Below, in pieces: positions 3,227-20,174 of a stretch of 62,933 nt of DNA. The notes beneath the pieces are model-generated. The model saw nothing but the letters and a program-made list of their open reading frames with translations. It had not been told where the DNA came from and did no database searches. The stretch is from the NCBI GenBank assembly GCA_038888155.1, contig JAWAJB010000005.1:1-62933 (forward strand), in the 5' to 3' direction. Both the position numbers and the translations under genes were made by a program. Each line of letters begins with the position of its first letter. Within the stretch, counting starts at the first letter, position 1. Origin of the DNA: Desulfurococcaceae archaeon (GTDB taxonomy: Archaea; Thermoproteota; Thermoprotei_A; Sulfolobales; Desulfurococcaceae).

Positions 3227-3586
3227 TTAATGGTGCTTCGACTGTTTTTCGTTGCTTTCAACCTTTTGATCGAAATTATGAGAGTAAGCACCAGTTAGCC
3301 CCTCGACCTCCTTTTCCCCTCTCGCCAATTCCTCGGCTTGCTCTTCGTCTAGCGACCTTAAAACTGCAAGAAATTCGCCTACGTGTGTTTTCTCTTCTTT
3401 TGCAACATCCTCAAACACTTTCCTTATTTTTTCATCATCAATAGATCTTGCGATCTGCAGATATAGGCTTACTGCGTCTAGCTCAGCCATCATTGAAAGC
3501 CTTAGGGCATCTTTAATCTCTTCTTTGGATAGCTTCTTATTTGAAGATAAGTCAATTGGGTTTTTGGATAACAATTTCTGCACCAT
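3227..3586 (-). CDS. Encapsulin-type ferritin-like (EncFtn/Flp) protein
   Basis: LSKNP..ALRLSMMAELDAVSLY..DVAKEEKTHVGEF..LDEEQ..G..EV..LTG matches the ferritin-like domain fused to archaeal encapsulins; ExxH di-iron motif. Confidence 0.8.
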   Translation of the reverse strand: MVQKLLSKNPIDLSSNKKLSKEEIKDALRLSMMAELDAVSLYLQIARSIDDEKIRKVFEDVAKEEKTHVGEFLAVLRSLDEEQAEELARGEKEVEGLTGAYSHNFDQKVESNEKQSKHH

Positions 3587-3991: not shown

Positions 3992-5374
3992 ATGACAGAC
4001 TCGTTGCCAACTAAGCTTAAGCTTAGTGAGGCTGTTAAGGTAGTAAAACTTACAGAAAACTTGTTTCCCAAATGTGCATTCCTTAAGTACTATCCATTAG
4101 TTGTTACAAGAGCGCTTGGATCAAAGCTATGGGACGCTGACGGAAATGAATATGTTGACTTTATTTCTGGGGCAGCCGTCTTTAACATTGGGCATCTCCA
4201 TCCAGATGTTGTATCATCAATAGAGAAGCAGCTCAAGCTATATCTTGCCTATCCCATAGTGTATTTCTATACTATAGGGTCATGCGAGCTAGCCAAAAAA
4301 CTCATTGAAATTACGCCAGGATCAAGTAACAAAAAAGTCTTATTCGGGTTTTCAGGCTCGGACGCGATGGATATGGCGCTGATGATCTCGAGAGCATCAA
4401 CCCAGCGAAAGTATGTTGTATCATTTAAGGGTTCTTTTCACGGATCGACTTACTTGTCAATGGCGGCATCAGGAATTATCAGCGATGAGCACAGAAAGCT
4501 ATTTCAACTACCTACCGATATTTTATTTGCAGATTACCCCAATCCCTACCGAAATCCCTGGAATATAGATGGATATGAAAATCCACAAGATTTATCAAAT
4601 TTAGCGCTAGAGGACGTTGAGAATCAAATAAAAAGAGTGGGGGGAGATGTTGCAGCAATTACAATCGAGGCTATACAGGGAGACGGCGGAATTGTTGTCC
4701 CACCCAGCAACTTCTTGCGAGATCTAAGTAGGCTAGCTAAAGAGTATGGTGCAGTCTTCGTGGTAGATGAAGTGAAGACGGGATTTGGTAGAACGGGCAA
4801 ATGGTGGGCAATAGAGCATTTTAACGTAGAGCCCGATATAGTTGTGTCAGGAAAAGCCCTTGGAGGAGGTATGCCCATCTCTGCCATAATAGCACGCGCT
4901 GAAATAGTTGACAACTTGCCTCCCAGCGGCTTATCATTTACATTATCTCCACATGCTCTGTCGGCTGTTGCCGCACTAACTACTATAGAAATAATCAAGA
5001 GAGATAACCTACTAGAGAGAGCTACACGCATGGGCGATTACGTATATAGGAGGCTCTCAGAGATCAAAGAGAGTAGCAATATCGTGGGCGATGTACGTGG
5101 AAAGGGACTACTTATGGGAATAGAGATAGTGCGCGATAAGAAGAATAAACTTCCAGATAAGCCGTCTACGTTGAAATCGCTGTGGAGGGCGTGGGAGCTA
5201 GGAGTTGTTCTATTGTCGGTTGGTCAGCATGGAAACGTCATTAGAATTGCCCCGCCACTAAACATACCCATGGATGATTTAGAACTAGCTCTCAGAGTGA
5301 TCGAGAGATCCATAAAGGATGTTGAGCGCGGAGAGATACCCGATAACGTCTTGGAGTATATGACTGGGTGGTAG
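3992..5374 (+). CDS. Class III PLP-dependent aminotransferase-fold enzyme, probable amino-acid racemase
   Basis: FHGSTY, EAIQGDGG, DEVKTGFGRTG, PLP lysine in SGKALGGG, C-terminal GW as in Thermococcales racemase/GABA-AT homologues. Confidence 0.85.
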   Translation: MTDSLPTKLKLSEAVKVVKLTENLFPKCAFLKYYPLVVTRALGSKLWDADGNEYVDFISGAAVFNIGHLHPDVVSSIEKQLKLYLAYPIVYFYTIGSCELAKKLIEITPGSSNKKVLFGFSGSDAMDMALMISRASTQRKYVVSFKGSFHGSTYLSMAASGIISDEHRKLFQLPTDILFADYPNPYRNPWNIDGYENPQDLSNLALEDVENQIKRVGGDVAAITIEAIQGDGGIVVPPSNFLRDLSRLAKEYGAVFVVDEVKTGFGRTGKWWAIEHFNVEPDIVVSGKALGGGMPISAIIARAEIVDNLPPSGLSFTLSPHALSAVAALTTIEIIKRDNLLERATRMGDYVYRRLSEIKESSNIVGDVRGKGLLMGIEIVRDKKNKLPDKPSTLKSLWRAWELGVVLLSVGQHGNVIRIAPPLNIPMDDLELALRVIERSIKDVERGEIPDNVLEYMTGW

Positions 5375-5396
5375 CCTCACTCGGTCGCTCCTTTTC

Positions 5397-5465
5397 TTTA
5401 AACTTGATGTGATATTTGTAACATAAATTATGGTAGGTTGTTATAAATATTACATCAAGTTTAAA
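5397..5465 (+). promoter_or_regulatory. 27-bp inverted repeat (hairpin or operator pair) between the racemase and the ABC operon
   Basis: Arms 5397-5423 and 5439-5465, 15-nt spacer, 25/27 Watson-Crick pairs; both mismatches are G.T on the + strand. Confidence 0.7.
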
Positions 5466-5503
5466 ATGTTGTTGCGTTGTTGTTTAAAAAAACAAGCTAA
5501 ATT

Positions 5504-7123
5504 TTGAAAGGAATGGCAAATATGGTATATAAAGCTCTATCAAAAACGCTGGGAATAATTATTGTAGTAGCTGTCGTAGTTATAGCTTTAGTTTCATACA
5601 TTTTCATATTGCCTACTTCAACGCAACCCCAGTACTCTAAAACGCTTATTTTTGCTACCACGATAGAGCCTACATCACTTGATATACAACAGGTAACATG
5701 GGCTACTATTATTCACAGCTTATTATTTCAGCCGCTAGTTACTATAGACAGCAATATGAACATTGTTCCGGATCTATCGGATCATTGGGAGATAAGTAGT
5801 GATGGTACTGAAATTACATTTCACATTCCAGAAAACGCTAAATTCTCAAACGGAGATCCAATAACTGCTCAAGCCATAAAAAAATCAATAGAGCGGTATA
5901 TAGAGATCTCCCCCTACTCTGATGACTATTCAGACCTTGCTGAAATTGAAGTTATAAATAACAACACATTAAAATTAGTTTTTAATAACCCCGTCCCGTA
6001 CATATGGCCTGTGCTCGTATCATCCTACGGTGCACCAGTAAACGCTTACGTTGCCGAGAAAATAGGGAACGAGGCTTTTGGTAGAGAGGCTGTTGGTAGC
6101 GGACCATATAAAGTCAAGGAATGGGTAAAGGGCTCACATGTAGTTCTAGTTAGGAATGAAAACTATAAGACCAACATTCCCTTTGTACAGAACAAGGGAC
6201 CGAGCCAATACATAGATGAGATTATCGTTAGGTTTATACCTGAAGATTTGACTAGGGTCACAGAGCTAGAGGCAGGTCGTGTAAATATAGTGCTCGATGT
6301 TCCACTAGATATGGTAGATAGACTTGAGGGCAATCCCAACATTAAATTATACAGTACGATATCCCCAGGAGTTTACTATTTAATGCTCAACTTAAAAAAC
6401 GAGAAATTAAGCGATTTAAAGGTAAGGCAGGCAATTATGATTGGGATTAATAGGACAGAGTTAGCACTAGCACTTGGGAACAAAATTTTGCCATGGTATA
6501 GCCTTCTTTCGCCAACTCAATTCTGCTACAACTCCACATTAGCGAAAAAGTATGAGGAAGTATACGCATATAACCCTGAAAAGGCCAAGCAACTTCTTAG
6601 GGAAGCTGGTTGGGTTGATACGAACGGGGATGGGGTAGTTGATAAGGAAGGTGTCCCGCTAAAGATAACGCTTCTCTCTGCAGTAGACGATGTTGCAATG
6701 AAGAAAGTGGTGCCCCTTATTCAGGCACAACTAAAGAAAATAGGGATTGATGTGGAGATAAGAGAGTTTACATTCAGTTACATAAGGGCTCTAAGCAGGA
6801 ACTGGGACTTTGAGATAGCATTTCATAGGATGTCGTGGATGGATCCTGACATACTAATATATAGGCTTCACAGCAAGATAGGAAACTTCACGTATGCCAA
6901 CCCCGAAGTTGATAGACTGCTAGAGCTTGGCCGTGTGATCTCGGACGAAACAGAGAGAGCTAAGGTATATTCGAAAGTTCAAGAGATCGTCCTTGAGGAT
7001 CTGCCGTTCTTGCCGATCTTCGTTCTAAAGAACTACATTGGAGTTAATAAGAATGTAGAAGGTTTAATCGTGCATCCAAATGGCAATATCTTTCTGAACG
7101 ATGCTCGAGTAAAGCAAGGCTGA
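5504..7123 (+). CDS. dppA: Peptide/nickel ABC transporter substrate-binding protein (family 5)
   Basis: N-terminal TM anchor, PDLSDHWE, FSNGDPITA, GSGPYKV, KVRQAI motifs; start may be ATG 5513 or 5522. Confidence 0.9.
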   Translation: MKGMANMVYKALSKTLGIIIVVAVVVIALVSYIFILPTSTQPQYSKTLIFATTIEPTSLDIQQVTWATIIHSLLFQPLVTIDSNMNIVPDLSDHWEISSDGTEITFHIPENAKFSNGDPITAQAIKKSIERYIEISPYSDDYSDLAEIEVINNNTLKLVFNNPVPYIWPVLVSSYGAPVNAYVAEKIGNEAFGREAVGSGPYKVKEWVKGSHVVLVRNENYKTNIPFVQNKGPSQYIDEIIVRFIPEDLTRVTELEAGRVNIVLDVPLDMVDRLEGNPNIKLYSTISPGVYYLMLNLKNEKLSDLKVRQAIMIGINRTELALALGNKILPWYSLLSPTQFCYNSTLAKKYEEVYAYNPEKAKQLLREAGWVDTNGDGVVDKEGVPLKITLLSAVDDVAMKKVVPLIQAQLKKIGIDVEIREFTFSYIRALSRNWDFEIAFHRMSWMDPDILIYRLHSKIGNFTYANPEVDRLLELGRVISDETERAKVYSKVQEIVLEDLPFLPIFVLKNYIGVNKNVEGLIVHPNGNIFLNDARVKQG

Positions 7124-7141
7124 TATACGGGTATCGCGAAA

Positions 7142-8086
7142 ATGGGTCTGGCAAGGTACATTATCAAAAAAGTTTTGATCGGTATACCTATTGTTTTTGG
7201 GGCGACAATTATTCTTTTTTACGTAATGTTCCTGCTCCCTGGAGATCCTATTCAGCTTTTGCTCGCGGGCGAGAGGGTTACACCCGAGAAACTTGAAGAG
7301 CTGAGGGTTACTTGGGGGCTTGATAAGCCTGTCTTTGTTCAATATTTTTACTGGCTGTGGAGAGTTGTGCAAGGCGACTTAGGGGTTTCTATAACAACCA
7401 AACAAGCAGTAAGCTATCTAATATCCACAAGGATACCATATACCTTAGCACTGATGTTGCTATCGACAATTTTATCTTACTCTATTGGGGTGATAGCAGG
7501 CATAATAAGTGCCCTAAAGAAGGGCACCTTGTTGGACAATGTCGTATCTATAACAGCTATCACGTTGTACTCAATACCAAGCTTCTGGCTTGGTCTAGTC
7601 TTAATGCTACTAATAGGATATACATTGAGGTTACTGCCTATTTCTGGCTATGAAGGCCCACAGTCGTTTGTTCTCCCAGCGTTAACTCTTGCACTTCCTT
7701 CGTCGGCGTCTATAATGAGGTTGACTAGATCAGAGATGATCGAAACGCTCAACGAGGACTATGTAAAAACAGCGTGGGCAAAAGGACTACCTCAAAACCG
7801 CATTATTTTGGCTCACGCCCTAAGAAATGCCCTTCTCCCAGTCGTAGTAATGTTCTTTTTAAATCTACCTTGGCTTATAGGTGGAGCAGTTATTGTAGAA
7901 ACACTATTTGCTCTTCCGGGCATGGGCAGACTACTTTACGTTTCAATTATTAACCAGGATTACGCAGTAGTCCAGGGGATAGTGCTTATAATTACTGTTC
8001 TCACGGTCATTTCGAACACGCTTGGAGACATAGCGGTGGCTTTATTAGATCCAAGGATCAGAGTTGAGGTGAAGGGAGCCCAATGA
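7142..8086 (+). CDS. dppB: Peptide ABC transporter permease
   Basis: PGDP, GLDKP..QY, GDLG, DYVKTAWAKGL..HALRNA, VETLFALPGMG. Confidence 0.93.
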   Translation: MGLARYIIKKVLIGIPIVFGATIILFYVMFLLPGDPIQLLLAGERVTPEKLEELRVTWGLDKPVFVQYFYWLWRVVQGDLGVSITTKQAVSYLISTRIPYTLALMLLSTILSYSIGVIAGIISALKKGTLLDNVVSITAITLYSIPSFWLGLVLMLLIGYTLRLLPISGYEGPQSFVLPALTLALPSSASIMRLTRSEMIETLNEDYVKTAWAKGLPQNRIILAHALRNALLPVVVMFFLNLPWLIGGAVIVETLFALPGMGRLLYVSIINQDYAVVQGIVLIITVLTVISNTLGDIAVALLDPRIRVEVKGAQ

Positions 8087-8967
8087 AACATTTCAATAAA
8101 GTAGTCCCCAAAATTGAGTTGGGAACACTGACTAACAACGAGAAAATAGCTGCACTCTTAAGACATGGGCGCGGCATTTCGGGAATCTCTATATTGTTAA
8201 TCATTATCTTTTTAGCAACCGCTGCCGATTTTCTCTCTACATATAAATATGAGGAGGTTGATCCCGCCTCTAGGCTGTTGCCCCCTTCTTTTGAGCATCC
8301 ATTTGGTACTGATCACTTGGGTCGCGACGTCTTCACTAGGCTAATTCACGGTGCACGTATAGCTATTTGGGTTGGAATTCTCGTAGTGTTGATCGAGGCA
8401 GTCATAGGAGTGCCCCTGGGGCTCATTGCTGGATACTACAACGGCTTAGTAGATAAATTTATATCTGCATTAACAGACATGATATGGGCTCTGCCCCCAA
8501 TTGTTCTTGCCCTTGCAATAATAACCATACTTGGTCCCGGGCTAACTAACGCCGTTATTGCGGTTGCCGCGGTTAGCTGGGCGCCCTACGCAAGGATCGT
8601 CAGGGCAAAGACTCAATCACTTGTTAGCAGGGAGTTCGTCCTAGCAGCAAGGGCAATTGGAGAAGATAGTATAAGCATAATGCTGAGGTATATATTACCG
8701 AACCTGGCGCCATCGATTGTTGTTCTAGCTACGCTGACAATACCATCCGCTATACTTTACACAACTGCTCTCAGCTTCCTAGGTCTTGGAGCTCAACCGC
8801 CTACACCAGACTGGGGAGCGATGCTGAGCGAGGCAAAGGATTATATCCTTATAGCGCCTTGGTGCTCTGTAATTCCAGGCATCTTCATAACTATAACTGC
8901 TCTAGGTTTCAACCTATTGGGAGATGCCCTAAGGGATAGCTTGGATCCTAAGCTCAAGGTCAGGTGA
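8083..8967 (+). CDS. dppC: Peptide ABC transporter permease
   Basis: HPFGTDHLGRD, EFVLAARAIG, LSFLGLG.QPPTPDWG; ATGA overlap with dppB. Confidence 0.93.
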   Translation: MKHFNKVVPKIELGTLTNNEKIAALLRHGRGISGISILLIIIFLATAADFLSTYKYEEVDPASRLLPPSFEHPFGTDHLGRDVFTRLIHGARIAIWVGILVVLIEAVIGVPLGLIAGYYNGLVDKFISALTDMIWALPPIVLALAIITILGPGLTNAVIAVAAVSWAPYARIVRAKTQSLVSREFVLAARAIGEDSISIMLRYILPNLAPSIVVLATLTIPSAILYTTALSFLGLGAQPPTPDWGAMLSEAKDYILIAPWCSVIPGIFITITALGFNLLGDALRDSLDPKLKVR

Positions 8968-8973
8968 TCTTGC

Positions 8974-9966
8974 TTGGACACACTACTGGAAATAAACAAC
9001 CTAAAGGTAATTTACGAAACAGAAAGAGGACCACTTACTCCAGTGGATAGGGTTACACTAAAAGTATTGAGAGGAGAAACCCTCTGTCTAGTTGGCGAGT
9101 CGGGTTGTGGCAAAAGTACCCTAGCCCTCGCTATACCAAGGTTACTTCCACCAAATGCAAAGATCGTATCCGGGCAAATTATTTACAAGGGGAACGATCT
9201 CCTTAAACTCGACTACAACCAGCTTCAAAAAGTCAGGGGCCGAGAAATCGCTATAATATTTCAAAATCCCATGTCATCTCTTAACCCTGTGATGCGCGTA
9301 GGACACCAGGTAGCAGAGGTGCCGGTATTTCAAAATAATATGACATGGAGCAAGGCTGTACTCCTAGCTATTGATCAACTGGGAAAGGTTGGTCTGCCTG
9401 ACCCAGCAGTTCGAGCAAGAGATTTTCCTCACGCTTTTAGCGGAGGAATGAAGCAGAGGTCGATGATAGCTATGATGACAGTAGCCAAGCCGGATTTATT
9501 AATTGCAGATGAGCCTACTACTGCTTTGGATGTCACAATTCAGGCACAAATTATTGAACTTTTACAAACATTTAAGGTGGAGTACCAACTAACGCTTATT
9601 TTAATTACGCATAATTTTGGCATTGTTGCCGAAATATGCGACAGAGTGGCAGTAATGTACAGCGGGAAGGTCATTGAAATAGCTAATACTTTTGAGCTGT
9701 TTAAAGAACCTATTCACCCATATACAAGGGGGCTCATAGAGTGTGCTAAAGTTCGGGCAAAGCCTAAAACTAAGCTCTATCAAATACCAGGAAGTCCGCC
9801 AGATATGATTAACCCTCCACCTGGTTGTAGGTTTCACCCCAGGTGCCCATTCGCTACAGAGAAGTGCAGCAGGGAGGAACCCCCTCTAATGGAAGTGAAC
9901 AAAAACCACTTTGTGGCGTGTCACTTAAATAGCTCCACCGGCGATAAACAGTGGATTTACTCGTAG
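8974..9966 (+). CDS. dppD: Peptide ABC transporter ATPase
   Basis: GESGCGKS, FSGGMKQR, ADEPTTALD, HPYT, Cys-rich C-terminus CRFHPRC..C..ACH. Confidence 0.93.
   Translation: MDTLLEINNLKVIYETERGPLTPVDRVTLKVLRGETLCLVGESGCGKSTLALAIPRLLPPNAKIVSGQIIYKGNDLLKLDYNQLQKVRGREIAIIFQNPMSSLNPVMRVGHQVAEVPVFQNNMTWSKAVLLAIDQLGKVGLPDPAVRARDFPHAFSGGMKQRSMIAMMTVAKPDLLIADEPTTALDVTIQAQIIELLQTFKVEYQLTLILITHNFGIVAEICDRVAVMYSGKVIEIANTFELFKEPIHPYTRGLIECAKVRAKPKTKLYQIPGSPPDMINPPPGCRFHPRCPFATEKCSREEPPLMEVNKNHFVACHLNSSTGDKQWIYS
9811..9924 (+). repeat. 114-bp exact direct repeat, copy 1 (in dppD)
   Basis: aaccctccacctggttg...gtggcgtgtcac identical to 10794-10907. Confidence 0.95.
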
Positions 9967-10946
9967 TCAAAGAGCTTAAAAAGTACTTCCCCGTTAAACT
10001 AGGACTATTATCTAGGCCGAAATACATACGTGCAGTAGATGGCGTTAGCTTCAGCCTTCAAAGAGGATGTACTATTGGTGTTGTCGGCGAGTCTGGCTCA
10101 GGGAAGAGCACACTAGGCTTAACTATTTTGAGGTTGTTGGAGCCATCTTCAGGTGACATAATTTTCGAAGGCATAGACATTACAAGGTTGCCCCAAAGTG
10201 AACTAAAGTTCTTCAGGAAATCTACCGGTATCGTTTTTCAGGATCCTTTTTCTTCCTTGAACCCTAGGATGAAAATTAAGAACATCCTTGAAAGGCCTCT
10301 GAGAATACATATGCCTTACTTAGATCAAGATAGTACCTTAGACATCATAGCTAAGGCTTTAGAGGACGTTGGCTTAAGTTGTGAGCACCTTGATAGATAC
10401 CCTCACGAACTGTCTGGGGGACAACAACAACGCGTAGCCATAGCGAGAGCAATCGTGCTCAAGCCTAAGTTGATTGTTCTAGATGAGCCAACGTCATCTC
10501 TAGATGTGTCTATACAGTCTCAAATACTCAATCTACTCTTAGAACTCCAGGGAAAGTACGAATTGGCATATATATTTATTACACATGATTTGCTGATGGC
10601 TAGACACGTAAGTGATGTACTGCTAGTAATGTACGCAGGTAAAATAATTGAGTTTGGTGGCTCCTCATTAGTCTATACCGCCCCAAAGCACCCCTATACG
10701 GCTTTGCTGATTTCTTCGATACCTTACCCAGAACCTAAAGTAGCTAAATTACGGAAAGAGCTATCAATCCGAGGGGAACCTCCAAGCCTAGTAAACCCTC
10801 CACCTGGTTGTAGGTTTCACCCCAGGTGCCCATTCGCTACAGAGAAGTGCAGCAGGGAGGAACCCCCTCTAATGGAAGTGAACAAAAACCACTTTGTGGC
10901 GTGTCACCGCGCTTCCGAGCTAAGCTTTGATCTCGATTTGCACTAA
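9951..10946 (+). CDS. dppF: Peptide ABC transporter ATPase
   Basis: AVDGVSF, GESGSGKS, YPHELSGGQQQR, LDEPTSSLD, HPYT, Cys-rich tail. Confidence 0.93.
   Translation: MDLLVVKELKKYFPVKLGLLSRPKYIRAVDGVSFSLQRGCTIGVVGESGSGKSTLGLTILRLLEPSSGDIIFEGIDITRLPQSELKFFRKSTGIVFQDPFSSLNPRMKIKNILERPLRIHMPYLDQDSTLDIIAKALEDVGLSCEHLDRYPHELSGGQQQRVAIARAIVLKPKLIVLDEPTSSLDVSIQSQILNLLLELQGKYELAYIFITHDLLMARHVSDVLLVMYAGKIIEFGGSSLVYTAPKHPYTALLISSIPYPEPKVAKLRKELSIRGEPPSLVNPPPGCRFHPRCPFATEKCSREEPPLMEVNKNHFVACHRASELSFDLDLH
10794..10907 (+). repeat. 114-bp exact direct repeat, copy 2 (in dppF)
   Basis: Identical to 9811-9924, including synonymous positions. Confidence 0.95.
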
Positions 10947-10952
10947 TAACAA

Positions 10953-12542
10953 TCAGTGTTTATTGAATTTTCTCAAAATAGCACCTGGTCTCTGCTCACT
11001 ATTAACTCTACCGTTTTCAACTACTGCTTTACCGTTTACTATTACCCACTTTATCCCAGTTGGATAAGAGTGTGGATTATTGAAGGTTGCAGTGTCATTT
11101 ATCTTAAAGTAATCGAAGATCACGAGATCTGCCTTGAAACCCGGCCTAATTAAACCTCTGTCCCAGATCTTCAATTTCCTGGCTGGTAAGAGCGTCATTT
11201 TTCTAATAGCCTCAGTCAAAGAGACAGCCTTTCTCTCTCTGACGTATTTTGCAATTACTCTTGGAAATGTCCCATAAGACCTCGGATGGGGCTTTCCCTC
11301 TCCTAGCTTCCTTATCGACCCATCACTACCTATAGCTATAAGAGGATGAGAAATAACTTTTTCAACTTCCTCTGGATTTATAGTGAATCCAACTATATCC
11401 GTTGCAAGTTCATCATCTATTAGGAGCCTTACCATTACTTCGACTGGATCAATGCCAAGTTTTTCTGCTATTTGTGCAATCCTCAAGCCCTCGAATTCTT
11501 TATGTTTGAGCGAGAAAGCTACCTCTATGTCCTCCCATGAAATAGTTCCCTCCTCTGCAGCTAGTTTGCCAGGCTTCCTCTTTAGCTCCTCAATAATGTT
11601 AGGGGCCGAGAGCTTTCTCAAAACATCCTGAGATGGACCTTCCCTATAATCGTCCGGCAGCAGAGCAGTCAGTGATGTAGACCACGCTTCATATGGATAC
11701 GCATCTGCGCTAACATCATACCCTCTTGTGGCATAATCAGATATTAGGTCTAAAGCTATTCTAACCTTGCCCCAGTTGGCTCTTCCTACTGATTTTAAAT
11801 GAGATATTTCTACGCCAACGCCGGCCTCAAGCCCTACTTCAATTGTTTCGATTATCGAATCTATTAACGCAACCCCTTCGCCCCTCATATGGGTTGTATA
11901 TATACCTCCACGCTTCGCTACTACCTGGGTTAAACTGACGATTTCCCACTTGTTACCGTATGAGCTTGGAACGTATATTAGACCTGTGCTCAACCCGAAT
12001 GCTCCCGCATCCATTGCCTCTTCAACGTACATTTTCATTTGTTCTATATCTCTCTCAAGCGGTTTAACGTCATTGAACCCAAGAACAGCTGATCTAACAG
12101 TTCCATGACCAACTAATGGGATAACGTTTAAGGAGGGCTTCGAGTTATCTAATGCATCTAAGTACTCTTTGAAGCTATTCCAAGTAACATTAACTTCGGG
12201 GTATATGATTTTAATTTCACGCATATACTCTGCTCTGTTTATGTCTGTAAGGGGAGCCGGAGAGTAGCCGCAGTTTCCAATGACAATTGATGTAACGCCC
12301 TGCATAATATAATTGTCCCCAGTTGGTAACTCAAGTATGGATACATCGCTGTGGTTGTGCATATCTATGAAGCCCGGAGCTAAGATTAGATCACTTGCGT
12401 CTATAATGCTATCGGCCTTTTCCCCGGAGAGATCTCCTATAGTTTTGATTGTATCTCCGGCAATTCCTACGTCCGCTTTAAAAGGAGGGGCTCCCGAGCC
12501 ATCAACTACTATAGCTCTTTTAATGATGAGATCTAACTCCAA
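10953..12542 (-). CDS. N-acyl-D-amino-acid deacylase (D-aminoacylase) family amidohydrolase, paralog A
   Basis: PGFIDMHNHSD, GNCG, GLSTGLIY, HMR, SHLK, YPY, GSDG, HPRSYGTFPR. Confidence 0.9.
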   Translation of the reverse strand: MELDLIIKRAIVVDGSGAPPFKADVGIAGDTIKTIGDLSGEKADSIIDASDLILAPGFIDMHNHSDVSILELPTGDNYIMQGVTSIVIGNCGYSPAPLTDINRAEYMREIKIIYPEVNVTWNSFKEYLDALDNSKPSLNVIPLVGHGTVRSAVLGFNDVKPLERDIEQMKMYVEEAMDAGAFGLSTGLIYVPSSYGNKWEIVSLTQVVAKRGGIYTTHMRGEGVALIDSIIETIEVGLEAGVGVEISHLKSVGRANWGKVRIALDLISDYATRGYDVSADAYPYEAWSTSLTALLPDDYREGPSQDVLRKLSAPNIIEELKRKPGKLAAEEGTISWEDIEVAFSLKHKEFEGLRIAQIAEKLGIDPVEVMVRLLIDDELATDIVGFTINPEEVEKVISHPLIAIGSDGSIRKLGEGKPHPRSYGTFPRVIAKYVRERKAVSLTEAIRKMTLLPARKLKIWDRGLIRPGFKADLVIFDYFKINDTATFNNPHSYPTGIKWVIVNGKAVVENGRVNSEQRPGAILRKFNKH

Positions 12543-12680
12543 AATCCCAGCCTTAAAACGACATTTTACCTAATCGTGCCTCAGCCTTATAAGTATCGAG
12601 TCATCGTTCATAGTCGCACCCACCCAAAGTCAAACAATTTAATAATTTCTAGTTCACATATGTCTTGCAGGGGATATAAT

Positions 12681-14276
12681 GTGGCGACTTACGACATCGT
12701 AATAAAGCATGGTAAGGTGTTCTCAGGATCTGGTTCTTCCTGGTTTTATGCAGATATTGGGATCAAAAATGGTATAATAAAGAAAGTCGGCTACATAAAA
12801 AACCCGCAGGCTGATACTATCATTGATGCGAGCGGAAAGATAGTTTCTCCTGGCTTCATTGATTCTCACAATCATTCTGACCTAAGCATCATGGCTTATC
12901 CCGATGCCACAAATGCACTTCTTCAAGGTGTTACTACTATTATTATTGGAAACTGCGGCTTCTCAGCGGCGCCAGCACTGAGTAAAAAGAGAGATCTCCT
13001 CTATAGGTACTGGTCAACTCTAGGACCTCTTCCAGTTGAAATAACTTGGAATAGCTTTGGCGAATATCTAGATCAACTTGAGAGAGTAAAACCTGCAGTG
13101 AATATAGCACCATTGGTTGGTCATGGAACGCTTAGAATTGCCGCTATGGGATTTGACGCTAGATCTCCTGATCAACAGGAGATGAATTTGATTAAATCTC
13201 TACTTGTTGAATCTCTAAACGCTGGAGCTTTTGGCATTTCAACGGGACTAATATATCCTCCTGGAAGCTTTTCTAGTACTTCTGAGCTAATAGAATTAGC
13301 AAAAGTGGTGGCCGAGCACGGGGGAATTTACGTTTCCCACATAAGAGGAGAGTCGCACACTTTAATTCCGGCCGTTCAAGAAGCAATTGAGATAGGTAAG
13401 CAAGCTAAAATCCCCGTAGAGATAAGCCATCACAAAGCCTCTGGTAAAGACAATTGGGGCAAAGTTAAGGAGACCTTAAAGCTTATTGAGGACGCCAGAG
13501 GCGCTGGCGTGGAGGTTAATTGCGATGTATACCCATATACTGCTGGTATGACAATGCTATCGGCTGTCCTACCTAAGTGGGCGCACGAGGGAGGTATCGA
13601 GGCATTGATCTCAAGGTTAAGAGACCCCTTAATGCGAGCTAGAATTCGAGAGCAAATGGAGAAGGATACCTCCACATGGGAGAACTTCGCAAGACAAATC
13701 GGGTGGGAAAACATTGTTGTTTCTTACTCTGATAAGTGTAAATATTGCGAAGGCAAAAGCATTGCTGAGATAAGCAAAGCATGGAATTTAGATCCATACG
13801 ATGTTGTATTTGAAATATTAATTAAGGATGAATGCAAGTCTACAATGATTACTCACTCTATGCGAGAAGAGGATGTTGTAGAGGTCATAAAAAGTCCTTT
13901 TAGCATGATCGGCTCCGATTCGTGGGTTCTGCCAACAGAGGGAAGGGCCCACCCGCGGTTCTTTGGCACTTTTCCTAGAATAATCAAAAGGTATGTTAAG
14001 GAATTGGGAGCCCTGAGGTTAGAGGAGGCAGTTAGAAAAATGACAACGCTTCCAGCTGAGAAGTTTAGATTGTTTGATCGTGGATATATAGGACTTGGGT
14101 ATAAGGCAGATATTGTAATATTTGACTTCAAAAAAATAAGCGATCAAGCCACATTCGAAGAGCCTACGAAGCTCCCTATAGGAATTGAGTACGTTATAGT
14201 CAATGGAACTCTAGCTGTAGAAGAAGGAGTAGTAACTAAAGTCAGATCTGGCGAAGTTATACGTAGATCCGAGTAG
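12681..14276 (+). CDS. N-acyl-D-amino-acid deacylase (D-aminoacylase) family amidohydrolase, paralog B
   Basis: PGFIDSHNHSD, GNCG, STGLIYPPG, HIR, SHHK, YPY, GSD, HPRFFGTFPR; start moved from 12576 to GTG 12681 (purine-rich SD-like GGGGA, alignment with paralog A). Confidence 0.9.
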   Translation: MATYDIVIKHGKVFSGSGSSWFYADIGIKNGIIKKVGYIKNPQADTIIDASGKIVSPGFIDSHNHSDLSIMAYPDATNALLQGVTTIIIGNCGFSAAPALSKKRDLLYRYWSTLGPLPVEITWNSFGEYLDQLERVKPAVNIAPLVGHGTLRIAAMGFDARSPDQQEMNLIKSLLVESLNAGAFGISTGLIYPPGSFSSTSELIELAKVVAEHGGIYVSHIRGESHTLIPAVQEAIEIGKQAKIPVEISHHKASGKDNWGKVKETLKLIEDARGAGVEVNCDVYPYTAGMTMLSAVLPKWAHEGGIEALISRLRDPLMRARIREQMEKDTSTWENFARQIGWENIVVSYSDKCKYCEGKSIAEISKAWNLDPYDVVFEILIKDECKSTMITHSMREEDVVEVIKSPFSMIGSDSWVLPTEGRAHPRFFGTFPRIIKRYVKELGALRLEEAVRKMTTLPAEKFRLFDRGYIGLGYKADIVIFDFKKISDQATFEEPTKLPIGIEYVIVNGTLAVEEGVVTKVRSGEVIRRSE

Positions 14277-14438
14277 ATGTCTGCTGTTAGTTTTTCTATT
14301 AATTGACCTTTTACATAAGAATATATAGCTGAGTTTTTATTCACATCCAAGAAATTGACTGTTATCTCACTCAGCATTATTAATTAAAAACAACACTTAA
14401 TACCTTGGTTTACCTTCAATCTCATAGGGGCTAAATAA

Positions 14439-15203
14439 ATGACCCGGAACATTAAGATCCTAGATGTTGTACCAGTGATTTTAACTGAAATGAGCAGGCT
14501 CGAGTACAGGAAAGAGTTATTCAGAGAGATACGCAACGCTACTAACGGGCTAGTATCAATAGATGTAATCTACCTCGAGAAAGGGGTCGCGTCGATCGAA
14601 TCTGCATACGATGAGTACGTCAGCGCTCCCTACATTCTCGAGAAAGTTGTGTGGGCCGAAGAAAACAGCTACGACGCTGTAATCATTGATTGCTTTGGAG
14701 ATCCAGCGCTGGATGCAGCGCGGGAGCTTGTCAGGATACCTGTAGTGGGCCCAAATCAGGCATCAACCCACTTAGCAGCACTAATTGCCTCTAGGTTTTC
14801 AATAATTAATATCCTGAGAGAAACGGAGAATTTGGTAAGATCATTAGTAACTAAGTATGGTTTAGTAAATCATCTTGCATCTATAGAGAACATCGAAATG
14901 CCTGTTTTAGATCTTAGAAAAGATCCAGATAAACTTCTTGAAAAGATCGTGGAATCGGCTAAGAGGGCTTTCAATGAACACTCGGCTAATGCTGTAGTTC
15001 TAGGGTGCACTGGTATGTCATTTGTAGCAGATATGGCTGAAGAGAGGCTACGTTCCATCGGTATAGAAATGCCTGTAATAGACCCGCTTAGAACAGCGAT
15101 TCATACCGCTGTTTCGTTGGTATTGCTAGGCAAGTCGCATAGTAAACTGGCATACAGTAGACCTAGGAGAAAGCACAGAGTGGCTGATTTTAAAATTGTT
15201 TAA
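14439..15203 (+). CDS. Hydantoin/allantoin racemase (Asp/Glu/hydantoin racemase family)
   Basis: SIES..DE, two catalytic Cys motifs DCFGDP and LGCTGM, PVIDP. Confidence 0.88.
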   Translation: MTRNIKILDVVPVILTEMSRLEYRKELFREIRNATNGLVSIDVIYLEKGVASIESAYDEYVSAPYILEKVVWAEENSYDAVIIDCFGDPALDAARELVRIPVVGPNQASTHLAALIASRFSIINILRETENLVRSLVTKYGLVNHLASIENIEMPVLDLRKDPDKLLEKIVESAKRAFNEHSANAVVLGCTGMSFVADMAEERLRSIGIEMPVIDPLRTAIHTAVSLVLLGKSHSKLAYSRPRRKHRVADFKIV

Positions 15204-15420
15204 ATAGAAAACCCGCTAGAATTTTAATATTTATCTGAAGCCTTTTTCTTGGACACAGTCTCATTTAATCATAAGCATAGCACTTTAATGTGCGTTAAAG
15301 TCAACATAAGTCTTTAAACCTTAGCAATACCAACAACAGCTCGAGAAATTAGCCTTTTTTTATGTATGGGTTTAATTTTGCTTTTTAGTTATTCTACACA
15401 TAATTCCTGACGGTGTTTGC

Positions 15421-16650
15421 ATGAAAAGCAAGAGCGTTTTACTAGTAGGAGTCGGCAAACAAGGTAGAGCTGCATTGTGGGATTTAATAAATAGCAATGT
15501 CGTTTCGAAGGTAATAGCCGTAGACACGGTGAGTAGTGCCGAGGAGTACGTCAGGAGGTTGGGGTCAGATAAAGCATCTTTTGTTAACGCTGACTTAAGA
15601 GATCGCACTAAGATATTAGAGTTGGCCAAAGAAGTAGACTTAATCGTGTATTTAGGCCCAGCTAAATACACGCATGATATGATCAGATTGGCAGTCGAGG
15701 CCGGAAAACACTTAGTCAACGCAAACTACTTAATACCTCCTGATACCTCGTTAGACCCTGTAAGGTATCGAGCCCTTAAGGAGAACATAGATAAGCTGAA
15801 CTCGATCGCAGAAGAAGCTGGTATAACTGTTCTACCCGAGTTCGGCTTAGATCCCGGCATAGATCTAGTCCTAGTTGGTCAAGCTATTAGAGAGCTCAGC
15901 GTTGTAGAAGAGCTATATACCTATGGAACTGGTATACCAGATCATCAAGCAGCTGCCACAAATCCCCTTAAATACAAAGTCACTTGGACCTTCGAGGGCG
16001 TTCTAAACGCGTATAAACGACCTGCTCGTATAATTCGTGAAAGCAACATTGAAGTGATACCAGCTACTGAAATATTTTCTAAACAATACTGTCACGAAGA
16101 GGAATTTGAAGGGCTTGGAAAGCTTGATGTGTATCCTAATGGGGATGCTGTAGAGTTTGCTGCAATTTTCAACATATTAGGAGACCTTAAGCATTCAGCT
16201 CGATATAGCGCTAGGTGGCCTGGACACTGCGATTTCTGGAAGAAACTTGTAGATCTTCACTTCTTAGACGAAGAGCCTATAAGGGTAGACAGCGCCTCTG
16301 TATCCCCCAGGAAGTTCCTAGCAGCTCTGCTCGAGCCCCAGCTGCAGCTAAAGGAGGGCGAGAGGGACATAGCGCTAGTTCGCGTCGACGCTCGAGGGGT
16401 TAAGGGAGGCAAGTACGCTAGAGTAGTTTACCAGCTCTTAGACTACAGGGACCTCGAGACTGGGTTCACTGCAATGCAGAGGACAACTGGCTTTACTGCT
16501 AGCGTTGGGGCGCAGATGATCTTAAGGGGGGATATAAGCAAGAGGGGGATACTGTTCCCGGGCACAGATGTGCCGTTCGATGTATTAACAGCAGAACTTG
16601 AAAAAAGAGGCATGAAAATTACCCACATAGTAGAAGAACAACATAGGTAG
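15421..16650 (+). CDS. Saccharopine dehydrogenase / L-lysine 6-dehydrogenase family oxidoreductase
   Basis: Rossmann GVGKQG, GLDPG, NPLKYKVTW..EG, RWPGH, TAMQRTTGF. Confidence 0.85.
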   Translation: MKSKSVLLVGVGKQGRAALWDLINSNVVSKVIAVDTVSSAEEYVRRLGSDKASFVNADLRDRTKILELAKEVDLIVYLGPAKYTHDMIRLAVEAGKHLVNANYLIPPDTSLDPVRYRALKENIDKLNSIAEEAGITVLPEFGLDPGIDLVLVGQAIRELSVVEELYTYGTGIPDHQAAATNPLKYKVTWTFEGVLNAYKRPARIIRESNIEVIPATEIFSKQYCHEEEFEGLGKLDVYPNGDAVEFAAIFNILGDLKHSARYSARWPGHCDFWKKLVDLHFLDEEPIRVDSASVSPRKFLAALLEPQLQLKEGERDIALVRVDARGVKGGKYARVVYQLLDYRDLETGFTAMQRTTGFTASVGAQMILRGDISKRGILFPGTDVPFDVLTAELEKRGMKITHIVEEQHR

Positions 16651-16815
16651 AGTTCCTCTCTTCTATAATGAGCGTTCAAAAGTCTTCAAAAATGATTTTT
16701 CGAGGCTCAATCTCCTCAATATTTTTCCATCCAAGTATTTGTCGCACAGCTACCAGTGCGTTATTAGCGTACGTAGGCATATCATATGGGCTTTAACTTA
16801 GAGCTTCCATAATAG

Positions 16816-17592
16816 CTATTGAAAGGCTATATTCCTAAGTGAGAACACATAGTTCCGCATAATGGCAATAACAAGGGAAATTGATAAAATCCAAATAGCT
16901 ATAAAGAGCGCATACCTCCATGGCTTATTTACTGAGAGCCAATCAGGCAAATTAAACTTTATATATGGTACTAAAAATGGAACCTTAGTAGCGTAAGTTA
17001 AGTACCTTTCCCCGTAGGTATTTATTAAAGATTTTTCCTCGAGACTTGCCATAATTAGGTAGCTCACGAGAAGAGTAATCCACCCTATTATAGAGGCCGG
17101 CCTTAGAGACTTAATTGTTAACCCTAATGCTAGGAGAATCAAACCCAAGTACTGAGGGTGCCGCACTAACCTATACATCCCCCCGGTCATTAATCCGCGT
17201 CTCTTCTTCAAGTTGATCAACCACTGAGTGAAAGAATACACAAAAATTATAGACCCAGCGCAAACTAGTATTAAGTCTATCAGTCCCCAATTGAAAATGG
17301 TAGGAAGCAAAATTCCATGTTCTTCATTGAGCTGTATTGCATATGTTAGCCAATACAAGCTCTCGCCAGGTCGAAAAGGATCTGGTATATCTTTAAGGAC
17401 TGGCCAGGGCCACGTAAGAAATGCGTATAAGCCTATCGGTATAAACATGATGAAGAGCAGTGGATTCAAAATAACAGCTAGGGATGGAAGAATGTTAACT
17501 AAGGTAATTGCGAGCAGGATAATCCTGTTGATGAATTTAATTTTAATCTTCAACAAACTCACCCTGAGCCTCGATTTGCTAGCAATGAACAT
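16816..17592 (-). CDS. ICMT/PEMT-family integral membrane methyltransferase
   Basis: Multiple TM segments; G.Y..VRHPQYLG and EE..L..YG..Y..Y...VP motifs. Confidence 0.75.
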   Translation of the reverse strand: MFIASKSRLRVSLLKIKIKFINRIILLAITLVNILPSLAVILNPLLFIMFIPIGLYAFLTWPWPVLKDIPDPFRPGESLYWLTYAIQLNEEHGILLPTIFNWGLIDLILVCAGSIIFVYSFTQWLINLKKRRGLMTGGMYRLVRHPQYLGLILLALGLTIKSLRPASIIGWITLLVSYLIMASLEEKSLINTYGERYLTYATKVPFLVPYIKFNLPDWLSVNKPWRYALFIAIWILSISLVIAIMRNYVFSLRNIAFQ

Positions 17593-17649
17593 AAAGCTAT
17601 AATTATACCAACCTTACGATTAATAAAGTGTAAAAGAGGTGTTAAATTC

Positions 17650-18798
17650 GTGCTAAGGCTTCAAACGAAGTTGGATGTTGAGGACTTCGTTAGGGGTTGC
17701 GCTTTCCTTGGTACAGGCGGAGGTGGGGCACCTCAACGGGGCCTTAAGTTGCTGTTAGAAGACCTCGAGAAATTTGGAGAGATTTTAATACATGAACCTC
17801 AGAGCATAAGAGATGAGGCATACGTTGTAACTCCATTTGGTATGGGATCAATTGCCCCAAGAACACCTGAAACTGAGTCGAGGATGCATGCGCTAGGGCT
17901 TGTCAAGAGGATTGGTATAGCCGAAAGAAGGCTTGTTCATGCTGTCATAGAACTTGAAAAATATCTGGGCATAGAATTCGAGGCTATTGTCCCAATAGAG
18001 CTTGGCGGCTCCAATACGCCTGCCCCAGTTGACGTTGCAGTAACGCTTGGTAAAACAGCTGTAGATGGCGATTACGCTGGGAGGGCTATTCCGGAAATAT
18101 CCCAGACAACGCCCTACCTTTACAATATTCCGCCTTACCCTAGCTCCTACGTCGATGAGTATGGAAATAAAATTGTTGTTACAAAGGCTATAAACTACTT
18201 AATGGCAGAAAGAATTGGTAAACTTTACAGCGTGGCAGTTTTCTCGCCTGTGGGCAGCGCTTCATTTGCTATAACCGGTAAAGAAATGAAGAAAATTATT
18301 ATCCCAGGCACGTTAACTGAGTCATATAACATAGGTAAAACTTTGCGTAGGGCGGTAGAAACAGGTAAAGATCCAGCACTAGAAGTCGCGAAGTCGAGGG
18401 ACGGCTTTGTCCTCTTCAAAGGGACTGTTGTAAGAAAGGAATGGGAAGACCGCGAGGGGTATATGTGGGGAACTACCTATATAAGGGGGGTAGAAGAGTT
18501 CGAAGGCCACGATGCTAAAATTTGGTTCAAGAATGAAAACCACATCATGTGGTTTGACGATAAGGTTATTGCCACAAGCCCAGATATTATCGCCGTAATC
18601 GAATCACATAGTGGAGATCCTATTACTAATACGGACATAAAAGAGGGAAAAAGAGTTTCGGTTGTTGGTCTTAAGGCCAGGGATCAGTTTAGAACACCCA
18701 GGGGTATTGAAATATTAGGACCGAGGCATTTCGGCTTTAACATAGATTACATACCAATAGAGATAAGGGCAAAGGAATTCCCATTGTTAAAGCCTTGA
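17650..18798 (+). CDS. DUF917 family protein (thiohydantoin desulfurase-like family)
   Basis: GCAFLGTGGGG, ELGGSNT, DGDYAGRAIPE, FKNENH, PDII, GPRHFG. Confidence 0.85.
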   Translation: MLRLQTKLDVEDFVRGCAFLGTGGGGAPQRGLKLLLEDLEKFGEILIHEPQSIRDEAYVVTPFGMGSIAPRTPETESRMHALGLVKRIGIAERRLVHAVIELEKYLGIEFEAIVPIELGGSNTPAPVDVAVTLGKTAVDGDYAGRAIPEISQTTPYLYNIPPYPSSYVDEYGNKIVVTKAINYLMAERIGKLYSVAVFSPVGSASFAITGKEMKKIIIPGTLTESYNIGKTLRRAVETGKDPALEVAKSRDGFVLFKGTVVRKEWEDREGYMWGTTYIRGVEEFEGHDAKIWFKNENHIMWFDDKVIATSPDIIAVIESHSGDPITNTDIKEGKRVSVVGLKARDQFRTPRGIEILGPRHFGFNIDYIPIEIRAKEFPLLKP

Positions 18799-18914: not shown

Positions 18915-20174
18915 TCATGTTTTTTGTTTTCTGTTCATTAAATCTACAGATTTGATGAGTAATTCCCTCATAAGTTTAGACATCAGGAAAGCGCTCGCCC
19001 TTTCTCTTGCATTTTTACCCATTTCATCTCTTTTTTCTCCATTTCGCACGAGTGACTTTATCGCATTAGCTGCTCCTTCGATGTCCTCTGGGCCATTCAG
19101 GTGAACTCCGTCAACGTTGTTTCGTATTAGCCATTTTTGACCGTAAACTGCACTAGTTATAACTGGTACACCGCCGTACATAAACTCAAGCTGCGTTAGA
19201 CCAAATGCCTCTAGCTTGGACATTATAATGTTTAAATAAGTGGCTTTAATTAGCGATGCCGTCATGTCTTCAGACAACTCTCCTGTTATAACAACATTCC
19301 CCGCATCCTTGGATTCGGAGATAATGTCATCCCACTGATCTCCAGGCCTACCAGCTATCACGAATAGAATTTCCCTTGTTGACCTCATTCTCTTGGCAAC
19401 TCTTACGACGGCGAGGGGATTTTTGCGCGTTTCCAGAGTGCCTAGATACGATATTAGTATCCTATTTTCAGGGATATCAAATTTCTCCAAGAAGGCAGTG
19501 GCATTTGCGTTATCAATTTTTTGCGCTAATTCATCGTCAAGACCGCCGGGAAATAAATGTATTTGCTCCTGTCTTGCACCAAGTGAAATCATTTCCTCTG
19601 CCTCGATCCCCGTTAGACAAATTATTAAAGAGGCAGCCCTGAATATTGATGGGAACGCGGAAATATTCCAAGCCATTCTATAAGTTCTCTCAACTAATGA
19701 ATATCGCGATGGATCGGGAGGTTGATAGTGCGACATGTGCCCATATATAGTATCTCTGGTCTCCTCTCCTAGCGAATTCATTAAGTTTTTCCACAATATC
19801 CACCTAGAGACTTCTTCAGGCGCGTTCCACAGAGTTGAGTGGGTTATAATGAGATCTACTCCAATGTTCTCATCAATATCCCTAAGCACAGAGATAAAGT
19901 CCCTCAAAACAATTCGCCTAGGCGGCCATAGTGTTTTTGAACTACTGACCCTTATAGTGGGGAGCCCCAAAACTGGGTCTTCTTTAAATATTACATACCC
20001 CCGCTCCAGCCTAGTTAATTCAACCTCGGGTAGCACAGGTTCGCTATCGTGGTAAATGCTCGTGATAAGCCATGCCTCGTGTCCTAGTTTAACAGCCCAT
20101 TTGACCATGCGCTGAGCGAGAAGCTCTTGTCCTTTCGATGTCGATGTCTGGTACATTACGGAGAAAAATTTCAT
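18915..20174 (-). CDS. GT4 glycosyltransferase
   Basis: RKN, EAFGLTQLE(F)M.GVPVI GT-B signature; overlaps the upstream gene (ATGA). Confidence 0.85.
   Translation of the reverse strand: MKFFSVMYQTSTSKGQELLAQRMVKWAVKLGHEAWLITSIYHDSEPVLPEVELTRLERGYVIFKEDPVLGLPTIRVSSSKTLWPPRRIVLRDFISVLRDIDENIGVDLIITHSTLWNAPEEVSRWILWKNLMNSLGEETRDTIYGHMSHYQPPDPSRYSLVERTYRMAWNISAFPSIFRAASLIICLTGIEAEEMISLGARQEQIHLFPGGLDDELAQKIDNANATAFLEKFDIPENRILISYLGTLETRKNPLAVVRVAKRMRSTREILFVIAGRPGDQWDDIISESKDAGNVVITGELSEDMTASLIKATYLNIIMSKLEAFGLTQLEFMYGGVPVITSAVYGQKWLIRNNVDGVHLNGPEDIEGAANAIKSLVRNGEKRDEMGKNARERASAFLMSKLMRELLIKSVDLMNRKQKT

Follow-up and report, generated by a model that had tools for sequence, protein, structure and literature searches.

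A possible neighbourhood of amino-acid salvage modules, with a BAR-type racemase, two D-aminoacylases and a racemase-like/DUF917 pair, in a Desulfurococcaceae archaeon

The window analysed here is a stretch of 62,933 nucleotides from a Desulfurococcaceae archaeon (assembly GCA_038888155.1, contig JAWAJB010000005.1). Between its positions 3992 and 18798 it carries genes for a class III pyridoxal-phosphate (PLP) racemase homologue, a five-component importer, two D-aminoacylase paralogues, a two-Cys racemase-like protein, a saccharopine-dehydrogenase-family oxidoreductase, a membrane methyltransferase and a DUF917 protein (Table 1). An initial annotation, made from the sequence alone, had taken these genes for one new D-amino-acid and hydantoin salvage system. 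Our reading, which we hold at about even odds (a probability near 0.5), is that these genes form a real neighbourhood made up of two or three salvage modules, each transcribed on its own and all related in theme, and not one operon-like system. The common theme would be amino-acid derivatives of ‘wrong’ stereochemistry or with a blocked or cyclised amino group.

The open reading frames (ORFs) of the window were listed and scanned with Pfam and NCBIfam profiles: 19 ORFs in 1-24000, 31 in 24000-62933 and one at 365-667, 51 in total. Every gene named by the initial annotation is an intact ORF where it had been placed, and its family assignments agree with the Pfam, NCBIfam and PDB comparisons. 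The methyltransferase gene, which sits between the dehydrogenase and DUF917 genes, was missing from that annotation; it has no assigned role and probably falls outside the D-amino-acid theme. The genes look functional, since neither the aminoacylases nor the racemase-like protein have lost catalytic residues. The G+C content is even over the whole window, at 0.40-0.45 per 2 kb, so nothing sets the stretch apart as an island. The Hydantoinase_A/B, D-hydantoinase equivalog, CN_hydrolase and M20 models find no match among the 51 ORFs scanned, and the statement that no classical hydantoinase or carbamoylase is present holds true for the whole window.

Table 1. Genes and features of the stretch 3992-18798
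Feature	Coordinates	Strand	Family match or position
BAR-type class III (fold-type I) PLP amino-acid racemase homologue, 460 aa	3992-5374	+	PF00202, E 4.5e-102
27-nt inverted repeat with 15-nt spacer	5397-5465	+	racemase/binding-protein gap (129 bp)
Family-5 (Dpp/Opp/Nik class) substrate-binding protein	5504-7123	+	PF00496 (SBP_bac_5), E 2.5e-85
ABC permease B (DppB-like)	7142-8086	+	BPD_transp_1
ABC permease C (DppC-like)	8083-8967	+	BPD_transp_1; OppC_N found in the permease pair
ABC ATPase D (DppD-like)	8974-9966	+	ABC_tran + oligo_HPY
ABC ATPase F (DppF-like)	9951-10946	+	ABC_tran + oligo_HPY
D-aminoacylase-family Zn amidohydrolase, paralogue 1, 529 aa	10953-12542	-	PDB 1m7j, E 6.3e-81
D-aminoacylase-family Zn amidohydrolase, paralogue 2, 531 aa	12681-14276 (longest ORF from 12576)	+	PDB 1m7j, E 2.8e-96
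Two-Cys Asp/Glu/hydantoin (allantoin) racemase-family protein, 254 aa	14439-15203	+	PF01177, E 3.8e-37
Saccharopine-dehydrogenase-family NAD(P) oxidoreductase, 409 aa	15421-16650	+	PF16653 + PF03435
PEMT/ICMT-like membrane methyltransferase	16816-17592	-	PF04191, E 2.2e-10; PF04140; NCBIfam matches weak
DUF917 (S-Me-THD-like) protein, 382 aa	17650-18798	+	PF20906, E 1.4e-57; PF06032, E 2.1e-41

The coding strand switches four times across the stretch, and operon-like packing is found only in the five importer genes. Between other neighbours on the same strand lie 129 bp (racemase and binding-protein genes), 162 bp (genes of aminoacylase 2 and the racemase-like protein) and 217 bp (genes of the racemase-like protein and the dehydrogenase). 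Divergent spacers of 138 bp and 57 bp separate the two aminoacylase genes and the methyltransferase and DUF917 genes, respectively. The stretch is not one operon; from strand and spacing it appears to comprise at least six transcription units. A search for a shared operator in the six upstream regions, using exact 8-mers, 10-mers with one mismatch and 12-mers with two mismatches, gave no k-mer above shuffles, in what is a weak test with 20 mononucleotide shuffles for each. This organisation bears on the view that the whole of 3992-18798 encodes a single co-regulated pathway, which would run from import through ring opening by DUF917, deacylation or decarbamoylation and inversion by the two racemases to oxidation by the dehydrogenase. 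All the enzyme types needed for such a pathway are indeed present within 15 kb and are active-looking in sequence, but the number of transcription units, the strand switches and the lack of a common upstream motif speak against it, and together with the evidence on conservation given below they make it unlikely.

The best solved match of the class III enzyme is BAR, the broad-specificity racemase of Pyrococcus horikoshii (9wrf), at 541 bits. The next matches are an Ala/Ser racemase (383 bits), 7vno (318 bits) and an Ile 2-epimerase (317 bits), and among the best solved matches racemases and epimerases outrank all transaminases but one. Two residues are conserved in alignment with BAR and the Ala/Ser racemase: the PLP Lys, in the segment SGKALGGGM, and the Asp of VVDEV. 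In PH0782, the Ala/Ser racemase, K291 and D234 are described as the PLP-binding Lys and a PLP-contacting Asp, both essential, in the accessible part of PMC6047364. Since the enzyme falls under all NCBIfam equivalog cut-offs (the best model, PRK08360, gives 467 bits against a cut-off of 608), it would be an unnamed member of the BAR racemase clade. Its description as a racemase-type enzyme is upheld by the lead of BAR over the next match and by the retained Lys and Asp. As measured by bit scores, which are not a tree, it is closer to BAR than to transaminases or to other racemase paralogues.

Directly downstream, a family-5 binding protein, two permeases and two ATPases with an oligo_HPY tail make up the complete Dpp/Opp-type ATP-binding cassette (ABC) importer that had been described. 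The binding protein has an N-terminal hydrophobic stretch that serves as a membrane anchor. Its NCBIfam matches are nickel_nikA (179 bits), Opp4A (160), OppA (128) and DppA (97), all far under the cut-offs, and its PDB matches are a mixture of peptide, nickel and opine binders. The permease genes overlap by 4 bp, and the best NCBIfam matches of their products are Opp2B (309 bits, cut-off 350) and Opp2C (289 bits, cut-off 300); the ATPases are matched best by the OppD and DppF models. These matches can also be read in another way, in which the genes of the stretch are chance neighbours. The importer would then carry nickel chelates, opines or sugars, the class III enzyme would be an aminotransferase or a biosynthetic racemase, the racemase-like protein and DUF917 would act on purine or ureide rings, and the dehydrogenase would belong to lysine or polyamine metabolism. 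Permeases nearest to the nickel-type Opp2B and Opp2C models and a binding protein nearest to NikA are what this view would predict, as is a window rich in assorted hydrolases and transporters, in which thematic clustering may be overread. The nickel scores, however, are all below their NCBIfam cut-offs, and the ranking of racemases and epimerases among the solved matches of the class III enzyme does not suit an aminotransferase; we regard a chance neighbourhood as doubtful.

Between the racemase and binding-protein genes lies an inverted repeat whose arms are 93% complementary. Its RNA fold has an energy of -32.5 kcal/mol with a z-score of -7.7, and none of 200 shuffled sequences is as stable. 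The arm sequence is unique within the window, and a search of positions 3000-26000 against Rfam gave no matches, so the hairpin fits no Rfam family. Candidate roles are terminator, processing hairpin or operator.

The two aminoacylases, both matched by the D-aminoacylase of Alcaligenes (1m7j), are 45% identical in a pairwise alignment, which points to an old duplication. The gene of paralogue 1 is convergent with those of the importer. In this alignment paralogue 1 keeps the HxH, NCG, THMRGE, SH(L)K, GSDG and YPY segments of paralogue 2. In paralogue 2, aligned to 1m7j and its variants, all the residues mutated by the depositors of 1v4y and 1rjq are conserved. Both proteins have, besides the YPY segment, an HxH, Cys, His, His and Asp set which, with its residue numbering, we take to be the metal and catalytic set of D-aminoacylase; 1v4y and 1rjq differ from the wild type at exactly two positions of this set. 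The N-acyl-D-Glu deacylase 3gip is also matched by both. Structures of the hydrophobic type and of the D-Glu type score nearly equally against the two aminoacylases (326 versus 301 bits and 276 versus 271 bits), so that the subtypes (hydrophobic, D-Glu, D-Asp or ureido-cleaving) are inseparable by scores. Some members of the family reportedly cleave L-Xaa-D-Xaa dipeptides, a finding attributed to Cummings et al. 2009. The YPY motif has been described in the D-aminoacylase family, with the N-acyl-D-Asp deacylase of P. abyssi as a characterised archaeal member, in the accessible part of PMC12149444. UacY of C. difficile, a D-aminoacylase homologue, is a decarbamoylase which, in the partial account available, cleaves the ureido group after the opening of a hydantoin ring. 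With this precedent, a D-aminoacylase homologue would supply the ‘missing carbamoylase’, which is a point in favour of a single pathway. The database form of paralogue 2 has 531 residues, and the 105-bp upstream extension (12576-12680) matches nothing in its relatives; the start is therefore probably the GTG at 12681 and not position 12576, and the spacer between the divergent paralogues is probably 138 bp. Among the best 120 relatives listed, the closest named ones of paralogue 2 are Sulfolobales metagenome-assembled genomes (MAGs), at 55% identity.

The racemase-like protein matches PDB 3qvj (E 1.6e-35, about 126 bits) and the allantoin racemase 5lfd (91 bits), and no NCBIfam model matches it. 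Its two Cys residues, in IIDCFGDP and VLGCTGM, occupy the positions of those Cys residues of 3qvj that are Ser in 3qvk, in agreement with its earlier description as a two-Cys member of the hydantoin-racemase family. Desulfurococcaceae MAGs provide the closest named relatives, among the best 120 listed, of both this protein (66%) and DUF917 (76%). In public annotation the relatives of the racemase-like protein are called ‘allantoin racemase’. This name, and the presence of allantoin racemase among the nearest solved homologues, would favour a chance neighbourhood with a purine- or ureide-ring pair, but no further purine-catabolic gene was seen in the ORF scans of the window.

DUF917 scores 44.6 and 43.1 bits against the thiohydantoin/S-methyl-thiohydantoin desulfurase equivalogs, well short of their respective cut-offs of 450 and 440. 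Its AlphaFold model has a pLDDT of 94.5. In a Foldseek search of this model against the PDB, the structural-genomics entry 2o3i is matched with a TM-score of 0.75, and only two chains of this entry, out of at least 500 matches, reach E <= 0.001. A hydantoinase-like view of DUF917 has been published (10.1101/2023.09.25.559410, in the part accessible); it is not reproduced by the Foldseek search, in which no entry but 2o3i reaches E <= 0.001. Genes of the PF01177, DUF917 and AroM families are reported in the same source to be enriched together near cyclodipeptide oxidases, and the accessible text calls DUF917 uncharacterised. No functional account of DUF917 or of a thiohydantoin desulfurase was found in the literature searched. 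Ring opening by DUF917, as proposed in the initial annotation, is with these cut-offs missed and no solved hydrolase matched a guess.

The dehydrogenase matches saccharopine reductase (1e5l, E 1.7e-29) and PH1688 (3abi, E 4e-21) in the PDB, and no NCBIfam model matches it at 1e-5. Its closest ESM Atlas clusters are families of unnamed function, mostly from Synergistota and Bacillota. Of the proposed identity as a lysine 6- or saccharopine dehydrogenase, the family stands (PF16653 and PF03435), and an assignment to a characterised subfamily goes beyond these matches. The oxidation step assigned to this enzyme is likewise unsupported, and this counts against a single pathway.

Which of these genes stay together elsewhere can be judged from the lists of the best 120 relatives of aminoacylase 2, the racemase-like protein and DUF917, which were compared for common contigs (identified by length in bp with a consistent source), on the longest contig of each cluster. 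The racemase-like and DUF917 lists have nine contigs in common, of 10480, 391329, 9322, 11396, 13146, 15074, 7875, 25179 and 126585 bp. Aminoacylase 2 shares two contigs with the racemase-like protein (10480 and 321002 bp) and one, that of 10480 bp, with DUF917. The chance level is indicated by impossible matches between contigs of different sources, which are one of 1495 bp for the racemase-like/DUF917 comparison, one of 1914 bp for the aminoacylase 2/DUF917 comparison and none for aminoacylase 2 and the racemase-like protein. The 10,480-bp contig is common to all three lists, so that aminoacylase 2, the racemase-like protein and DUF917 are still neighbours in the nearest relative (75-80% identity). 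This contig is a point for a single pathway and a point against a chance neighbourhood; that it is the one real contig common to the aminoacylase and DUF917 relatives speaks against the single pathway. In relatives beyond this one, the racemase-like and DUF917 genes are the only ones that stay together, to identities as low as about 50%.

The pair is also found in bacteria. Both genes lie no more than 9 kb apart on four plasmids, from Novosphingobium, Aureimonas, Parageobacillus and Rhodococcus (among the 30 and 60 best of 128 and 362 records, respectively). Two of the four have them in a single operon-like array, which also includes transporters and a gene of the hydantoinase/oxoprolinase family. 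The order in these arrays is hydantoinase/oxoprolinase family, DUF917 and Asp/Glu racemase family, accompanied by a TonB receptor or an ABC importer. In Aureimonas the array encloses the ABC importer, an arrangement that would suit a single pathway.

Conservation around the aminoacylases was followed from an alignment of aminoacylase 2 against one genome per species, which gave at least 603 stretches, of which 488 were confirmed and 80 were kept as loci, each with flanks of up to 10 kb. Seventeen of these loci are archaeal and 63 bacterial by title, with identities of 33-55%; close relatives are not among them. Since most are distant relatives, the counts describe the family at large and not orthologues. 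The 80 loci were searched with the window proteins by tblastn and by profile and single-sequence HMMER. The racemase-like gene was found near the aminoacylase in none of the 80, DUF917 in two (L015 and L021, both Bathyarchaeia MAGs), the saccharopine-dehydrogenase family in one (L004), a class III PLP gene in three (L004, L009 and L043) and a family-5 binding protein in five (L010, L024, L043, L052 and L066). For the multi-copy families these counts are roughly at chance level, by estimate and not by computation. The initial annotation had named conservation of the gene neighbourhood as its check, and around the aminoacylases this is largely lacking. These counts favour chance neighbours and argue against a single pathway. 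With at least six transcription units, four strand switches, no common upstream motif and such sparse co-conservation, the claim of one system for the whole stretch is not supported.

Some of these loci are nevertheless instructive for a single pathway. L004, a Clostridia MAG (5569-16115), is the sole one of the 80 that echoes several window families: it holds a PALP gene, a saccharopine-dehydrogenase-family gene, two tandem D-aminoacylases, a MatE exporter, a beta-lactamase-family (D-peptidase-like) gene and a class III PLP gene, and the joining of aminoacylases, dehydrogenase family and class III gene counts for the single pathway. So do the two Bathyarchaeia loci, where a distant DUF917 lies directly upstream of the D-aminoacylase (L021, 8621-9691) or about 4 kb from it (L015, 5008-6081, with an Lrp/AsnC regulator adjoining the aminoacylase). 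The importers vary from locus to locus. In L001 (Sulfolobales, at 53% the closest of the 80 to paralogue 2) a TAXI-TRAP system adjoins the aminoacylase, and L031 (Desulfurococcaceae, at 54% the closest to paralogue 1) has a gene of the Na:dicarboxylate-symporter family and a PALP enzyme. In L009 (Synergistaceae) the aminoacylase is accompanied by an SSF symporter and by a class III gene of 40% identity, and in L043 it occurs with the family-5 binding protein. That the nearest aminoacylase relatives each lie beside a different importer fits a catabolic role on imported substrates.

Several other genes of the window touch the same subjects. A TAXI-TRAP pair (NMT1_3 and a fused DctM) is encoded at 52063-55353 (+); in L001 such a pair lies directly after the D-aminoacylase. 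At 24488-25519 (-), 5.7 kb beyond DUF917, is a gene of the M19 ‘membrane dipeptidase’ family (PF01244, E 4e-78), which may share the theme; relatives of M19 act on dipeptides that carry a D-residue at the C-terminus, which they hydrolyse. The window encodes a further enzyme of D-amino-acid type at 48092-49120 (+), a PLP protein of the D-cysteine desulfhydrase/ACC deaminase/D-cysteate sulfo-lyase family, whose best NCBIfam match gives 294 bits with a cut-off of 450. The TAXI-TRAP pair is followed by an amidohydrolase like the Caulobacter-type Xaa-Pro dipeptidase (300 bits, cut-off 500), which occurs with a major facilitator superfamily (MFS) carrier at 56526-59186 (-), and an acetamidase/formamidase-family gene adjoins an MFS carrier at 36024-38279 (-), a further pair of small-amide hydrolase and transporter. 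On the flanks of the stretch, the gene at 3227-3586 (-) encodes an encapsulin-cargo-type ferritin-like (EncFtn-like) protein (EncB_fam, 84 bits, cut-off 90) and is adjoined by a single-domain KaiC-like ATPase gene at 1579-2967 (+); no gene for an encapsulin shell turned up in the scans of the window ORFs. Genes for a GT4 glycosyltransferase, a 237-residue protein of no family, an HAD-IIB phosphatase (trehalose-phosphatase-like) and a glycerate 2-kinase stand in a row at 18915-22935 (-) and may form a compatible-solute set of the glycosyl-glycerate type.

Based on these comparisons, a working scheme for the separately transcribed modules can be drawn, in which we infer all the substrates, the order of the steps and the flow between modules. 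In module 1, the membrane-anchored family-5 binding protein and the DppBCDF-type subunits would import small peptides or amino-acid derivatives, and the BAR-type racemase would turn freed D-amino acids into the L-form, an activity shown for the P. horikoshii homologue. The D-aminoacylases of module 2, with their intact catalytic residues and characterised relatives, would strip an N-acyl, N-carbamoyl or N-terminal aminoacyl group from a D-amino acid. In module 3 the racemase-like protein and DUF917 may act on a small cyclic amide, which could be hydantoin-, allantoin- or diketopiperazine-like; the racemase-like protein would equilibrate the ring stereocentre and DUF917 would take the next step, probably ring opening. 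The products of module 3 could pass to module 2 and then to module 1. The scheme gives no step to the saccharopine-dehydrogenase-like enzyme.

Several observations weigh against this division or against the roles given to its parts. The three genes that stay together in the nearest relative suggest that modules 2 and 3 may be linked and that the split is possibly too strict. Nickel and opine binders among the matches of the binding protein mean that the importer is possibly unrelated to D-residues, and sugar carriers occur among the archaeal members of its class. The DUF917 model resembles no solved hydrolase in the Foldseek search of the PDB. Bacterial DUF917 genes usually adjoin a gene of the hydantoinase/oxoprolinase family (L081, L083 and L084), and this partner is absent from the window. 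No AsnC/Lrp (FFRP) gene is found by Pfam among the 51 ORFs scanned.

The missing partner also permits a more specific and rather improbable reading, in which the pair without its hydantoinase/oxoprolinase gene is a route for cyclic amides made by heat. At high temperature, peptides spontaneously give rise to diketopiperazines and hydantoins, which also epimerise; these rings would enter by the Dpp-type importer. Their stereocentres would be evened out by the racemase-like protein, and ring opening would fall to DUF917, giving L-D dipeptides or N-carbamoyl-D-amino acids. The two aminoacylases would split these products, and the D-amino acids set free would go back to the L pool through the BAR homologue. 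If true, this would assign genes to microbial diketopiperazine or hydantoin breakdown in hyperthermophiles and a function to DUF917. Microbial diketopiperazine breakdown is described as little known in the accessible part of PMC3852281, and for that reason the thermal-damage reading deserves a bench test.

Little is understood of how hyperthermophilic peptide fermenters handle amino acids that are racemised, N-blocked or cyclised, though heat makes these compounds continuously; in one well-studied case the origin of D-amino acids in such habitats is called unclear (PMC13628549, in the part accessible). The present locus combines a BAR-type racemase with an ABC importer and two D-aminoacylases, in a phylum other than that of the Pyrococcus case, and has a compact form of the widespread racemase-like/DUF917 pair. 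No description of this gene combination was found in the literature searched, with most subscription journals outside its reach. The claim of a new system can be kept for the arrangement, and not for the modules, which are known, or for the racemase-like/DUF917 pairing, which is already in print. Of real interest is the question of what chemistry DUF917 and its racemase partner carry out. Should the modules cooperate, nature would have in this locus an equivalent of the industrial ‘hydantoinase process’, and DUF917 would gain a function; for now the locus provides good targets for expression rather than a demonstrated system.

Each part of the locus has a counterpart among known systems. Like the arrays of Novosphingobium pABRDHK22 and Aureimonas pAU20b, the window has a DUF917 gene and a two-Cys PF01177 gene with an importer nearby. 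Unlike them, it has no hydantoinase/oxoprolinase-family partner, and its pair is split by the dehydrogenase gene and the opposite-strand methyltransferase gene; the proteins of the bacterial plasmid pairs are 31-38% identical to those of the window. Both window aminoacylases share the fold family, the metal and catalytic residues and the YPY segment of the characterised D-aminoacylase-family members, but they are two head-to-head paralogues, 45% identical and outside a uric-acid cluster, which distinguishes them from UacY and the other characterised enzymes. With classical hyu operons the window has in common a two-Cys racemase of the HyuE/allantoin-racemase family. These operons have a D- or L-hydantoinase, HyuA/HyuB, a carbamoylase or an NCS1 permease, none of which is found among the 51 ORFs scanned, and since hydantoinase and carbamoylase are absent, hyu operons differ from the window more than the Pyrococcus BAR cluster does.

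The BAR cluster of P. horikoshii consists of PH0137, a YkvI-family transporter, PH0138, which is BAR, and PH0140, the FFRP regulator DARP. D-allo-Ile induces BAR and the adjoining transporter in this organism, and BAR permits growth on D-amino acids; the cluster with DARP is known from three Pyrococcus strains only, all according to the accessible part of PMC13628549. A second racemase-transporter pair is reported in the accessible part of PMC6047364. The Pyrococcus cluster belongs to Thermococcales and the present host to Thermoproteota. In place of a YkvI-type secondary carrier the window has a five-component family-5 ABC importer, the 51 ORFs scanned include no FFRP/Lrp gene to correspond to the divergent FFRP regulator of Pyrococcus, and here a strong hairpin lies between the racemase and importer genes. 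Common to both is a class III PLP racemase of the same clade placed directly beside an importer, and the role proposed for this arrangement in P. horikoshii is the use of external D-amino acids.

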